From the NCBI RefSeq assembly GCF_041886205.1, contig NZ_CP169029.1: DNA of 64,000 nucleotides. The stretch is one strand, 5' to 3'. Source of the DNA: Escherichia coli (lineage in GTDB: Bacteria > Pseudomonadota > Gammaproteobacteria > Enterobacterales > Enterobacteriaceae). Made by a program: the position numbers. Shown here piece by piece: positions 51,001 through 57,000 of the stretch; position 1 is the stretch's first letter, and every line of letters starts with the position of its first letter.

Positions 51001-54000
51001 ACATCTTCTTTTTTGTCTTTCACTGAAAAATGCCTGACAAAATCGCTCATGAAAATGTTTCTGAAACGCTGTTATCCAGCTTCAGAAACCGGTACTGCCT
51101 TCACCAACACAAATCATTTTGTTGTCACTGTCTGACCTGTTCTCCCCTCCCGGAACTCGCTGTTACTGATAGGAAAATGTAAATGTTGATATTCCGTTAA
51201 CCGTACCCGGATTAATTCCCTCACCAGTATTCACATACTTTACATACAACCGGACTGAGGGTGACGTTTCCGTTCCTGTTGATAACTGCCACTGGTTTTC
51301 ATTTCCCTTTACCGGCGAATCAGGTCCAAACTTCAGGGGCGTACTGTCAGTGTTTTTGTATATTCTCAGCCCGACTCCGGTTGCAGTCGATGCCCCCGTC
51401 AGTGTGAGTATATCGCTTCTGTTGGACGGTGTGGTCGCATCAGTCAGTGTTGCCCATACTGTTACTCCGGCATCACACTGTAATTTCAGTGATGTTGTCC
51501 CGGCGACAACTTCATCACCGGATGATGGCAGTTGTCCGGCAGAAATTGCAGCCAGGCTGACATTGACTGCGGAAGGTGTCAGTAATCTGCACGATGTTAC
51601 TGTGTCATTCAGCGTAAATGGATTCAGGCTGAAATTCACTGTGGTCTGAACACTGCCTGCAGATGAACCGTTATAGGGCCTCATTCTGATACTCCCGATG
51701 CTGGTCTTCTGTACACTGTATCGCGCAGAGGAATTTCTTTTTAAAATTACAGGTGTTACACGAACAGACAGTCCCTGGGTTGATGCAGTATTAGCTCCGA
51801 CACACCATCCGGAAAAGACATTTTCCCATGAGTTTCCGCTCATCGCGGTACCCCTGGAATAATTCGTGTCCCCCATCCATATAAGGAGCCCCACCTCCTC
51901 TGTCAGCCCATAAATACTCTGCCCGTCAAGACTGCCAACCACGGGTAAATCCACTTTCCCGTCCAGCCCGACACAAAATCCCTTAGAAATACGCCAGACA
52001 TTTGCATTCTGATATCCAATGTTGTTACCGGTATTATAGACAAATGGCAGGTTATCCATTGCATGAGTTCTGGAATAAGAGCCTGGAGATGGTCCCACAT
52101 CGTTTTCCGTACTGCCAATAAATGAAACTGCCGCCTGACTGATATTGCAGCAAACCAGAATGAATACAGCCAGAAAGACCTTATAAAAATTTGTCATATT
52201 ATTGCCTCATGCATACTACATGATGGTTTTCCGGAACAGCATTTCCCCTGGCATTTTCTCCGGACGCACTATAGTGAATGACACAACTGTCATTCTGCCC
52301 GCTTCCCCAGACTATCCTGAGCATCCCTTTTTCAGCATCCAGGTCACGTACAAATAACCGGCCTCCCTGAGCAATGTAGCCTGCAGATTTCCCGTCTGCT
52401 GTTAATGCTTCCGCGGCCATCGGCGGCGGCGTTCCGTCCGGCATCTTCACATCAAACAACATGGCTTTCCCCGTTTTTGTTGTGAAGGTCACCATGGTGG
52501 TACTGTTGGCCCGGGGAATAATTTCCCGCTCTGTTGCAGACAGTTCCACATCCGCAGCCAGCGCTGTCGGGTCGATACTGATATAATTCTTTTCGTAAGG
52601 TGTGACATACGGAACAATGCCGTTACCCCAGGGGTCCAGCCGGTTACCCGGCGCATTATTAATCACCGCCCCACCGGCACCATCAGCATGAATAACGGTA
52701 AATGTGTCACCAAGGTCATTACTGGCCGTCACACCAAACGGATGCGCCACTATTGCCCCGGATATACCGGCAGATATCTGACGGTTATGGCGACTGTCAT
52801 TCCCTGCCGTGGCCTGCAGGGTGGCCACCGGTGAACGATAACTGCCATTCACCGCATACCCTGTCGGTCCGTTTTCCTGGGTGTTCAGGGACACACCATA
52901 TGACAACTGATTGTCATCCCCGCTGACACCACTGATACTGCTCTGAATGCTGTTACTGTTTTTATCGCTGACATTCACTGTCGTGGACAGCAACGTCCTT
53001 CCCGTATCTGAAAGTGGCAGGGAAAAACTGAAAAAGAACCGGTTATCATGATGATAATCACCACTCCGTCGGGTCTGGGAAAAGCCAATCTGGTAACTCA
53101 TTTTTTTCCAGACGTTGTTATAACCGGCCTGGTACTCATTGAATGTCCCTGTATGTCCCCAGTAATGATAAGTGGCTCCGGTCAGATACAGGTTTCCCCA
53201 TCCCTCACCAAGACTCTGGTTCACAGTCAGTTGCAACTGATTCCTTGGCCGGTAACCAGTTGCACTCCTGACCGATGAATCATTAATCACATCACGATTC
53301 CTGGTCAGGATGGCATCCCGAAGACTCCAGAAGTCACGGGATGAATAACGGTAAGCCGCCAGCGTCACATTTGTACTGGTTTCCGGTATTCGTGCACTGT
53401 AACCGGCATGCAGGCTGTAGCCGCGATGTGTCGTGTCAGAACCCGGGAAAGTCGTTCTGGCCAGCGTAATATCCGTGGCAACAGCCCCCAGTGGTGTATT
53501 GAATGCCACACCACCCAGCCCTGACAGATAATGAGGTGCGGTACTCATCCCCGTATTCAGGGTGATATCATTTGTCAGCCCGTACTGCAGGGTCCCCTGG
53601 AATACGGTATCGCTGAATGTCCTGTTACCGTAACGATAACGCCCGGCTGCCACCTGCCAGCGACTGAACCCCGGGCGAACCAGTTGTGCAACCGAAGCAA
53701 ACGGCACGATAAAACTCCTGGTCTGTCCGTCTGACTCTGTCACAGTGACTGTCAGGTCACCACCATATCCACTGGGATAAAGGTCACTGATGGAGAAAGG
53801 CCCTGCCGGCACGGTAGTTTCATAAATAATGTTACCGTTCTGCCGGACAGTAACCCTGGCGTTACTTCCGGCCATCCCCCGAACCACAGGGGCATAACCA
53901 CGCAACGAACCCGGCAGCATCCGGTCATCAGAAGCCAGTCTTATTCCCCTGAGGCTGTTACTGTCCATAAGCTCACCTGTGGTGGTGAAATCCCCCAGTG

Positions 54001-57000
54001 TCAGTTGCGCACGCAACATGGCTATGTCGTGCTGAAGGTTCGTTTCAATACTCCGGTAACCTTCTGCATGACCGTCACTCCAGCTTTCTGTCCCCCGGTG
54101 ACGAAATGCCCAGCCTCCTGCGTTAAAGCCGGCACGAAGACCAAGATAACTCTGATTATTTTCCATATCGGGCGTCCGGTAACGCCAGTGATTCACGTCA
54201 TAACTGACAAAGGCAGCCGGCACCCCCGTCTGCCACTGAGAAGGTGATATGTATCCCCGTGGACGGGAAACCAGCATGGCCTGCGGAATTTCAACATTCA
54301 GCCGCAGCAGTGACAGGTCAAAACGGATTTTGGCATCAGGTACAACTGCAGAAAATGGCATGCAACGACCATTTCCGGTATCCGGTTCACGGGCAACGGC
54401 CTCGGGTGACACATCCAGAATGGATAACAGTTCCGGCGTCACACACAGAACACTCTCCTCCTGTGAAGAGGACATATCACGGAATGACAATTCCGCATTT
54501 CCTTTCCATTCACCGTTCAGATAAATGTCTGAATAATAATTCCCTGAGGGAACAGGATTCCCGTGCGTGAAACGACGGACATCAATCACACTGCTCCCTG
54601 GCGTGCGGCTCAGAAAACTCGGGTCAAATTCTGCATCCTCTGCCGCCCACAAAGGCGCAGACAGCATATAAAGTCCCGGCAGACAACATAAATAAATGAC
54701 ACGATATTTCAGACCGGATAAAGAATAATGACTCACTTACGGGCCCTTATTATTTCAGAACGGATTCACCTTTCTGGTAACCACCATTATCATTCACCAC
54801 CGTCCATTCCACTTTTCCTGACGGAGAAACCTTCTGCTTCAGTCTGAAAGTGACAGATGAAAACGGTGCGGCCATCCCCCCCTGAGTACTGCTGACTTTC
54901 TGAGCTCCCTGTCCGACACTGACAGTACTGAAGGTAATAAAATAAGGCGTGGGATTACTGGCCTGAAGGGTATCACCGCCTGTAAGCTGCCATGTCACTT
55001 TCTTATATGCATCATCAGGAGAAAAAGGCAGACCATCAGGACGGAAAAAAAACTTAATCCGGGTGCGTACGGCAAACTGAAGGTAATTATATCCCTGTGC
55101 TTTTTCAGATTTTCCGGCAAAAGAAGGTTTGGCCGGAATATCAAGAACATTCAGCCAGAACAGTGATTCCCTGTCTGCCGGAAGTTTTTCTCCCGTATAC
55201 ATAATTCGCATTGTCTGTCCGGAAAGCGGCTCCATCCGGAAAACAGGAGGCGTAATAATAAACGGCACCCTGACAGAGTCAGGAGGGGAAGACGGGTCCC
55301 CTGTATCAAGCCATGCCTGTATCAGGGATGGCGTACTGTCTCCGTTATTCAGCCGGACATTAATACTTTTTTGTTCTGCAGGATAAATAACCCTGGTCCC
55401 CATAATAACCACACTGCCATATGAGGGCAGAGACAAAAGAACGGTAAAAATGAACAGCAGAATATGTTTCATACAGGCTCCGTAAACACGGGGCAAAATG
55501 CCCCGTGAACACTTAAGAAGGCAGGTATTAAGATAAAAATTACTGATAAGCGATGGTGTAATTCACAGTGGCAGAAACGTTGCCGGCGGTGGCCTGACCT
55601 GTTGCATAGTACTGTGCGTTATAACGTAATGTCATTGCGTCATTATTAATAACAACAGGTGTTACTCCCTGATTAGCAGAATCATTACCAAGTAGTATCT
55701 GTGTGGTACCATCAGCATTCAGAAGCTGAATCTGGACTTTTGTTGCGTTACCAGAGCCACTACTTGAAATATTAAGGTTATGGCTATCATAATCAGTGGT
55801 CGCATTAGGCTCAAAATAAGCCTTCACACTTTGAGCTCCTGTAGCGGCAGCAGTATTACACCCACTCAGTGAAATTGTGAAAGGAGTAAGGCCTGCTACC
55901 TTCCCGGTTGAATCTAATGATTTTGTGGAGACAGTTGGTAGTGTAACTGTCAAGGGATCGGTTCCTGTAGTAACAGAACAAGTTTGATCAACAACTTTTC
56001 CATTAAAAGTAATTGTACCGTCATAAGCAAGTGTAGCAGAAGATGACGCAGCCGCCAGTATTCCAAGGATAAATTGAATTTTCCGCATAGAATCCTCAGT
56101 GAAACTGATAAGAATATATCATGAAAACAGCAGCAATTAAGAATTTAACTTAATATATTAAGAATAAATTTAATTGCCTATATACAAGATTATCCATAGT
56201 TAAAAAAACTCTCAAAACGTTAAAAACGATCGATATTTCAATTTTGATAGATAAAAGCTATCAATAAACAAATTAACGATCGGTTGTAACGATCGATAAA
56301 ATATATGAATCAACGTTGCCAAATAAAATAACACATCTGCAAAATAAAACTTTTTCATATTCAATAAATTAATTTCTATTTGTAACTATTACTTTTGATC
56401 ATGTATACGTTTTTAATCATAAATAATGATAATTAGCTTAGTTGATTATATAAAGGCTGTTTAGCCTGTGTTTAAGTTTTCATTTTTGTGAATTAAATCA
56501 CAAACAAGGATTTTCTGCGAATATAAATATATATAAAGTAAGATATATTATGTGCGTGTTTTATGCAGTTTATTTTTATTATCCCTATTTTCTGCAAAAC
56601 AACATATTAATCACTCTATCCATTTCTGACTCAGTTCCTTTTCTGTTCCAGGAAACCATTCATCATATTGCAGGAGAACACTCTCTGCGGGGAAATGGGA
56701 TGCAGAAACTTACAGACTACTGGCAACTTTAAATCTGTTTTTTCCGTTCAAAACGTGGGGGGATATAAGACCATACAGTGTCCAGCCAGGAAAAGTAACA
56801 ATAAAGCGCTACAGCATGGCTTCTTCCCCGGAAGAGTAGAGCGTAAAGAAGCTGTACATCACACCAATAAAGGAAACTGCCTGCACTTTTTCGCATCAGC
56901 CGTATTCTGAACAATCACCAGTGCCGCCCTCAACAGAATATACAGTATGATGATTTGGCTACCATGGCCAGGTTAACCAGTACGTTACGATGACTGTGCT

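Follow-up and report, generated by a model that had tools for sequence, protein, structure and literature searches.

A four-gene fimbrial operon of predicted F17d/G1 type, with a candidate OxyR/Dam switch, in an IS66-rich region of Escherichia coli

Fimbriae of the F17 family, chaperone-usher pili of pathogenic E. coli from ruminants, have been known since the 1980s. They are defined by a cluster of four genes, which encode in turn the pilin, the chaperone, the usher and the adhesin (PMC4267768), and the adhesin of one variant, F17dG, has itself been purified on N-acetylglucosamine (GlcNAc)-agarose, its best ligands on glycan arrays being GlcNAc-beta1,3-Gal structures (PMC3960879). The control of F17 expression is poorly documented. 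For the sister fimbriae Ucl, OxyR binding and control have been demonstrated at a site upstream of the operon, the ucl start has been mapped 78 nucleotides (nt) downstream of the G of an ATAG motif, and a G/T polymorphism at position -78 of that site alters OxyR-dependent Ucl expression (PMC9236248). In the gtr system (Salmonella/P22), OxyR bound to half-sites A and B gives the ON state, OxyR bound to B and C gives the OFF state, and Dam methylation fixes both (PMC2909390). Here we describe a four-gene fimbrial operon in 64,000 nt of Escherichia coli DNA (contig NZ_CP169029.1 of assembly GCF_041886205.1; this whole stretch is referred to below as the window), together with a candidate OxyR/Dam switch upstream of it and the mobile DNA that surrounds it.

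The operon and its adhesin

Positions 51163-56088 of the window hold four contiguous minus-strand open reading frames (ORFs) that, in the ORF listing of the window, contain no internal stops and no frameshifts. The original prediction had placed an intact four-gene chaperone-usher operon here, and each ORF was indeed found uninterrupted, at the coordinates and of the size it had given; the signal peptides that it had described on the four proteins are readable directly in the sequence. The genes cluster in the order pilin, chaperone, usher, adhesin, as the definition of F17 has it. Sequence comparison makes it almost certain that the segment is a complete f17A-f17D-f17C-f17G operon specifying F17 fimbriae (gamma4 chaperone-usher clade) of the F17d/G1 type. 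In particular, each of the four proteins is an exact match to database proteins present on 91-711 public contigs (exact-sequence look-up), and a 5.6-kb query was 100% identical at the DNA level to the chromosome of the bovine E. coli strain ZYB39, where RefSeq annotates f17a and f17g along with a chaperone and an usher. A match of 100% over 5.6 kb to a locus already annotated as F17 leaves no room for chance. The operon is therefore a known one: it is annotated, and its adhesin family has been crystallised and glycan-profiled, which makes it a real but ordinary find. The lectin alignment, structural work and glycan array that had been proposed for the adhesin are in effect already published, and the operon itself holds no new finding.

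The gene f17G (51163..52197, minus strand) encodes a two-domain tip adhesin of 344 aa that is identical, residue for residue, to the reviewed UniProt entry F17DG_ECOLX, 'F17d-G fimbrial adhesin' (exact-sequence look-up), and belongs to subtype G1. The two domains that had been anticipated for it are both recognised by Pfam, as the F17-G lectin domain PF09222 at residues 24-194 (E 1.7e-117) and the pilin domain PF00419 at residues 201-344. Residue 1 of the crystal structures aligns to residue 23, just past ...NISQA, so that the protein can be divided into a signal peptide (1-22), a GlcNAc-binding lectin domain (23-199) and a pilin domain (about 201-344). Its best matches in the PDB are the lectin domains of F17a-G, GafD, F17b-G, F17e-G and F17f-G (E 1e-111 to 1e-103), with 171/177 identities to F17a-G (PDB 1o9v) and 169/179 to GafD; beyond the F17a-G and GafD chains (95-97%), five further F17-G structure chains also match strongly. 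Six surface substitutions separate the protein from F17a-G (P16L, N33D, G35R, N37K, R47H and N90K, written query-position-reference), and none of these positions (16, 33, 35, 37, 47 and 90) is a named GlcNAc-contact residue. Asp88 and Thr89, which we take to be further residues of the GlcNAc pocket, are present as well. The named contacts are Asn44, Trp109, Ser117 and, in GafD, Thr117 (PMC12442223, PMC3960879), and all of them are kept, the last as Thr118. The protein also has the Ala113 insertion typical of F17aG, which GafD and F17b-G lack (PMC3960879). Consistent with these findings, in silico polymerase chain reaction (PCR) with the primers of the published multiplex assay of Bertin/Bihannic (PMC4267768) matched both f17G1 primers perfectly, with a product of 616 bp (615 bp expected), whereas the G2 and G3 primers had 8-10 mismatches. 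The receptor in this strain would be terminal GlcNAc (GlcNAc-beta1,3-Gal), the same as for F17, because the operon is F17 and the binding of F17dG has already been measured (PMC3960879). The earlier suggestion of gut or urinary epithelial glycans is thereby narrowed to the F17 receptor, and the part of it that pointed to Ucl glycans falls away.

The major pilin gene, f17A (55540..56088, minus strand; 'f17a' in RefSeq), has a GAGG Shine-Dalgarno sequence 6 nt upstream and encodes 182 aa with a 21-aa signal peptide. Of the named variants F17f-A of pVir68 comes closest (96% identity, 174/182); the differences lie mostly in the N-terminal third, and F17f-A has been described as a c/d recombinant (PMC4267768). 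In the in silico assay the f17A-family typing primers had 1 mismatch each, and among the subtype primers there were 2 mismatches for f17Ad, 3 for f17Ac (one of them at the penultimate 3' base) and 7-8 for f17Aa, f17Ab and f17Ae; the f17Ad primer site has the same sequence in the window as in pVir68, and pVir68 is PCR-positive for F17d-A (PMC4267768). (The best solved-structure match to the pilin is chain a of PDB 10ss, over the full length, with E 2.8e-30 and 14 chains. That chain is deposited as 'Ferrous iron transporter B', a name that does not fit a pilin-like chain of 179 residues, and it is probably a mislabelled pilus filament.) Between f17A and f17D lies a GC-rich 9-bp hairpin (55487..55507, minus strand), CACGGGGCA-UUU-UGCCCCGUG, followed by UUUAC; the 86-nt fold has -22.7 kcal/mol and z = -3.09, and 0/200 shuffles were as good. 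By analogy with other chaperone-usher operons, we infer that this hairpin may act as a partial terminator or as a stabiliser that keeps the pilin in excess of the assembly proteins.

The periplasmic chaperone gene, f17D (54750..55472, minus strand), encodes 240 aa from the ATG at 55472 in the RefSeq model, and the mechanical ORF (54750-55496) extends to a TTG at 55496, giving 248 aa; the protein matches fimbrial chaperone families, and its 90%-identity cluster includes F17a-D (O30925). The outer-membrane usher gene, f17C (52199..54736, minus strand), matches usher families with E 1.8e-190 and encodes 845 aa if translation begins at the GTG at 54736. The RefSeq model begins instead at the ATG at 54667 and gives 822 aa, which puts the predicted signal-peptidase site after just 8 residues, whereas the GTG has AAGGG upstream and yields a signal peptide of ordinary length, 31 aa, that ends LWA|AED; the alignment of UclC to F17C begins at UclC residue 31. 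Because of this normal signal peptide and the match to the UclC N-terminus we prefer the GTG start, in agreement with the 845 aa first assigned to the usher, and the public annotation probably starts too late.

If the fimbria works as its family membership implies, Sec signal peptides would export all four proteins, as is established for chaperone-usher biology; the F17D chaperone would cap the subunits in the periplasm, and the F17C usher would use donor-strand exchange to build the F17A pilins into a fibre that has a single F17G at its tip. Through its N-terminal, immunoglobulin-like lectin domain, F17G would then bind glycans that end in GlcNAc, best of all the epitope GlcNAc-beta1,3-Gal, and binding to intestinal mucins and microvilli would anchor the bacterium. 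A search of 5426 complete E. coli genomes at an identity of at least 90% found the operon in 36, in 35 chromosomal places and in 5 on large plasmids, and many of the hosts of these 36 are cattle, yak or calves. The operon is useful as a marker of a ruminant-type source, that is, an enterotoxigenic (ETEC), necrotoxigenic (NTEC) or septicaemic E. coli lineage.

A predicted OxyR/Dam switch upstream of f17A

Homology to the ucl OxyR site and a gtr-like spacing mark out a candidate OxyR/Dam regulatory switch at 56228..56294 (minus strand). Three half-sites can be distinguished on that strand: A, ATCGTTACAACCGAT (56293-56279), which fits 8/10 positions and carries two GATC sequences (ATCG-N7-CGAT); B, ATAGCTTTTATCTAT (56261-56247), which fits 10/10; and C, ATCGTTTTTAACGTT (56230-56216), which fits 7/10, carries one GATC and abuts the predicted -35 element. 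The gaps between A, B and C are 17 and 16 nt. Half-site B is the sole 15-mer in the 64-kb window that fits all ten specified positions of the OxyR consensus ATAGnTnnnAnCTAT, and it lies between the second and third of three CGATCG sites in the AT-rich region upstream of f17A. In the window as a whole CGATCGTT occurs 8 times against 2.15 expected, three times upstream of f17A and three times upstream of agn43.

The composite GATC/OxyR pattern has a single occurrence in the window, with 0 expected, and it is present in every F17 and ucl locus that we fetched (among the others, at 7707-7772 of L006, 25329-25395 of L001, 11224-11290 of L002 and 13609-13675 of L003). Upstream of uclA in UTI89 the layout is the same: a GATC, 13 nt, a second GATC, 49 nt and a third GATC, with ATAGGTGCAATCTAT between the second and third. 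The polymorphic base at -78 is the G of the ucl ATAG, as the mutagenic primers in the supplement of PMC9236248 indicate. When the window, two other F17 loci and ucl are aligned, the three GATCs and the half-site arms are invariant and the flanks diverge.

The alignment to the ucl promoter also yields, by homology, a predicted f17 promoter (56189..56217, minus strand) that consists of a -35 element TTTTGA (56217-56212), a 17-nt spacer and a -10 element GATAAT (56194-56189). Transcription of f17 would most likely start near 56180, leaving a 5' untranslated region of about 90 nt. A generic scan of the window for promoters and terminators returned 28 promoter-like sites where about 19 were expected; this homology-supported promoter was not singled out, and the scan was uninformative.

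These features raise the possibility, which we put forward tentatively and at rather less than an even chance, that a gtr-type OxyR/Dam switch turns F17 and its sister Ucl fimbriae ON and OFF epigenetically. OxyR on the distal pair A and B, with its two GATCs, would activate transcription and correspond to ON; OxyR on the proximal pair B and C, with its one GATC and its position against the -35 element, would correspond to OFF; and Dam methylation would lock in each F17 state. If true, this would add Dam-dependent phase variation to the OxyR control already known for Ucl fimbriae, and it gives the little-documented control of F17 a concrete, testable model in the form of a conserved OxyR half-site and a GATC triad. 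In the literature library searched, no paper linked F17 fimbriae with OxyR.

The window holds a second region of this kind. The gene for the autotransporter Ag43 (28491-31685, minus strand) has its classic triple-GATC OxyR/Dam region at 31825-31866, and the agn43 GATC pair, TATCGATCGTTACTATCGATCGTT, differs little from the one that precedes f17A (TATCGATCGTTAC..CGATCGTT). Separately, a palindromic cassette that is a looser version of the f17 pattern, GATCGAT-N10-11-TGATAG-N7-CTATCA-N10-11-ATCGATC, has 49 exact matches in species-representative genomes, against a chance figure, by our own estimate, of about one. Nearly all of these loci (L007-L055; for example L009 3163-3216, L011 2742-2794 and L055 12543-12608) are in Enterobacterales, and the cassette usually stands 70-400 bp upstream of genes for small lipoproteins or membrane proteins; ORFs of 128-132, 192 and 222 aa recur downstream, and in Proteus the cassette is found beside MrpJ-like helix-turn-helix genes. 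We rejected the cassette as a marker of F17-like operons, only 2 of the 49 loci (both Proteus myxofaciens) being near distant chaperone-usher genes. It may be a widespread, reusable OxyR/Dam switch module.

Nothing contradicts the identification as F17d/G1, but several points qualify what we attach to it. The pilin is identical to no named reference variant that we compared, F17f-A at 96% being the nearest, and the only ground for the pilin label 'F17d-A' would be the primer matches, with their 2 mismatches. NCBIfam returned generic fimbrial matches only, all below the curated cut-offs, and holds no F17-specific model. The region upstream of f17A is 33% GC and may be H-NS-silenced or phase-OFF, and control of f17 by OxyR would be carried over from ucl. 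Because the NCBIfam matches are sub-threshold, the family assignment rests on matches in the PDB, Pfam, UniProt and RefSeq. The operon is best named F17d-like with a G1 adhesin, the pilin label being the least certain part of that name.

The same upstream region bears on whether the operon is intact yet cryptic, a silent passenger in a decaying island with no contribution to phenotype. Silence under laboratory conditions is common among the chaperone-usher operons of E. coli; here, moreover, the island is full of insertion sequence (IS) elements and pseudogenes, and the DNA upstream of f17A is very AT-rich. However, none of the four ORFs is disrupted and each is the same as a widely distributed allele, the promoter/switch region is kept in every F17 locus examined, which argues for a maintained function, and strains with F17 are routinely recognised by the fimbriae that they express (PMC4267768). 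We therefore consider silence of this kind unlikely.

Neighbouring genes and mobile surroundings

Downstream of the operon, 2-3 kb away and on the same strand, are the two ORFs that the original prediction had reported there: a gene for a regulator of the AraC family (48352..49086, minus strand; 244 aa) and one for a protein of the YfdX family (49242..49871, minus strand). The regulator is full-length, with an AraC-type double helix-turn-helix related to Rns, and falls in the GadX/YdeO/Rns/ToxT branch. Its GadX/YdeO/Rns-like DNA-binding domain, in the C-terminal half, matches GadX with E 3.3e-18 and Rns with E 4.7e-15, and CsvR and ToxT are also similar; the best full-length family match is to the acid-response type, YdeO/GadX.

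The position of the gene and the fact that its relatives Rns, CsvR and ToxT are pilus regulators could make it, with YfdX, a dedicated Rns/CfaD-like activator of the F17 operon, and about 16-18 of the 36 F17-positive complete genomes do have the pair contiguous with F17. But no plasmid-borne copy of F17 is accompanied by the pair, nor are several chromosomal copies in pig, human and horse strains; in these plasmid and chromosomal copies homology ends at 51005 or 50617. Moreover, a dairy-farm plasmid carries the pair (92.5% identity, 48341-50135) by itself, with IS66 elements on either side and nothing fimbrial within 8 kb. That the closest full-length family is of the acid-response type also counts against such an activator, as does yfdX, which in K-12 sits in an acid-response locus, and the conserved site at the F17 promoter is one for OxyR instead. 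In the literature library searched, no paper linked F17 and YfdX. We judge a dedicated activator to be quite improbable, and the regulation of the operon by the AraC gene, as originally proposed, is not borne out by this distribution. Because the pair is absent from the plasmid copies and is found alone elsewhere, it is a separate, independent cassette and no constant part of F17 loci. The OxyR/GATC site would be a better regulatory lead than the AraC gene, which, under the OxyR/Dam model, would be irrelevant to the control of F17.

Two small ORFs on the minus strand, one of 63 aa (50859-51050) and one for a predicted membrane protein of 75 aa (50623-50850), have no family match; both are conserved directly after f17G where the F17 locus is chromosomal, in strains from cattle, humans and horses, and are missing from the plasmid copies. 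Within the part that is shared with the plasmids, 74 nt downstream of the f17G stop, a hairpin followed by AUUUUC (51057..51089, minus strand) may be the operon terminator, although it is weak (z = -1.86 for a 126-nt stretch).

The unit that recurs between genomes is an F17 module of 6.0 kb (51005..57024), 97.4% identical to plasmid pNTEC2-42405, that comprises the operon, 158 bp downstream of it and 936 bp upstream, including a pseudogene remnant of potE, the putrescine-ornithine antiporter gene (about 56812-57037, upstream of f17A). The potE remnant travels with the module on plasmids and chromosomes and is a fossil of the module's earlier context. The locus of a horse strain shares 50617-56363, thus adding the two small ORFs, and ends at an IS1 element 275 bp upstream of f17A. 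IS66-family elements lie beside F17 in all three contexts (the window, pNTEC2-42405 and the horse strain), and the module recurs on Vir-type/NTEC plasmids and on chromosomal islands, nearly always beside such elements. The present locus is a further chromosomal, IS66-associated location of the module.

To the left of the AraC gene is an IS66-family element (45957..48179, plus strand) with a 5'-truncated tnpA, tnpB and tnpC, which adjoins a second, oppositely oriented IS66-family element (44000-45903). To the right of the module is a further IS66-family element (57092..58400, plus strand) with tnpA and tnpB, its tnpC being disrupted and continuing into a hemagglutinin-repeat (CdiA-like) pseudogene. 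(The mechanical ORF of 1179 aa at 58057-61596 is this tnpC fragment fused to the pseudogene, which is cut by an IS4-family insertion.) The presence of tnpA, tnpB and tnpC of the IS66 family on both sides in direct orientation, and of IS66-family elements beside F17 on pNTEC2 and in the horse strain too, could indicate that the AraC-YfdX-F17 block is a composite transposon moved by two flanking copies of one IS66 element. Self-BLAST and a repeat search showed, however, that the flanking elements share only 528 bp (45989-46516 and 57271-57795, 98.3%), both are truncated, and their tnpC genes differ; the boundaries and partners of the F17 module also vary between genomes, which suggests repeated IS-mediated rearrangement. 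We rejected the composite transposon, two complete, near-identical copies not being present, and regard it as highly improbable. Of the mobile island flanked by IS66 copies that had been described, the island and the IS66-family DNA on both sides stand, and the matching copies do not, given the mere 528 bp in common. The surroundings are IS66-rich mosaic DNA with no demonstrable composite transposon, and the island that holds F17, downstream of the glc operon, is decaying. A search for an integration site of the island found no tRNA gene in the window.

Where the window carries an IS4-family insertion, the ZYB39 locus is otherwise 99.98% identical. The IS100 element (IS21 family) that ZYB39 has at about 42647-42656 is absent from the window; conversely, the window has an IS4-family insertion at 61554-62892, with a transposase ORF at 61603-62721, that ZYB39 lacks and that is IS186-like by our reading of the transposase. 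The left third of the window consists of the glc operon and then a Wadjet system, which are not the neighbours found in ZYB39. Because it lacks IS100 and has different left-hand neighbours, the window comes from a strain that is related to but distinct from ZYB39. In the left IS66 element tnpC has a 33-bp in-frame tandem duplication (47380-47447) that repeats an 11-residue peptide; the ZYB39 tnpC probably carries it too, the annotated gene length being the same (1572 bp). Inserted beside the glc operon, the Wadjet system is a complete type I anti-plasmid system (11920-18605, plus strand), made up of JetA (498 aa), JetB (254 aa), JetC (1095 aa) and JetD (394 aa), with PADLOC E values from 1e-116 down to 0.

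Comparison with known systems

A distant DNA search separated two clean classes, 36 genomes at an identity of at least 95% (F17) and 371, UTI89 and ST131 among them, in which only a part of the usher matched, at about 64% (Ucl). Although the operon shares its four-gene order and fimbrial clade with Ucl (UCA-like, 'F17-like') of extra-intestinal pathogenic E. coli (ExPEC), whose adhesin UclD binds O-glycans or sialyl-fucosyl glycans on colonic epithelium, and although the Ucl usher of those 371 genomes matches at the DNA level and the UTI89 proteins UclA, UclB and UclC are 52%, 57% and 59% identical to the pilin, chaperone and usher, the probability that it is Ucl is next to nil, for the adhesin is identical to F17d-G and aligns to UTI89 UclD in the C-terminal pilin domain only (45% over 133 aa). 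Our rejection follows from the direct protein comparison with UTI89 uclABCD, in which the F17G lectin domain had no significant alignment to UclD, and from the PDB search with F17G, which returned no UclD or UcaD structure even at E <= 10, though 7MZP and 7MZO exist. Indeed, the F17 and Ucl lectin domains, the latter represented by those two structures, are 14-16% identical and have no conserved pocket residues (PMC9236248). The description 'F17/Ucl-like' is therefore right as to the F17 family, and can be sharpened from likeness to membership; its Ucl half does not hold.

Ucl (uclABCD, UTI89/F11) is thus a sister operon of the same architecture whose lectin domain is unrelated in sequence and whose receptor specificity differs, and it is found in 371 mostly human ExPEC genomes, compared with 36 for F17. 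The closest described counterpart of the operon is that of the F17d (F111/Att111) fimbriae of bovine E. coli 111KH86, which has the same adhesin sequence, gene order and G1 primer sites. The crystallised lectin domains of F17a-G and GafD (F17c-G) (PDB 1o9v/1o9w and 1oio) share the PF09222 fold family, the pocket and the Trp109 platform with the adhesin described here. The plasmids pVir68 and pNTEC2-42405 of necrotoxigenic E. coli are 97.4% identical over 6.0 kb, including the promoter region and potE, and also have IS66-family neighbours; the window differs from them in being chromosomal, in having a G1 rather than a G2 adhesin, and in carrying AraC/YfdX and the two small ORFs downstream.

With respect to regulation, the likeness is to gtr, whose GATCs are at -110, -97, -46 and -33 (PMC2909390). 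Relative to the predicted start those of F17 would be at -114, -101 and -51, and F17 and ucl are without the fourth GATC, having a single one in the proximal half-site. As in gtr, two GATCs spaced at 13 nt occupy the distal half-site of F17, and a further 50 nt lead to the next GATC, beside the -35 element. F17 further resembles gtr in having three half-sites, a long spacing that is said to fit reduced OxyR, and a proximal site at the promoter.

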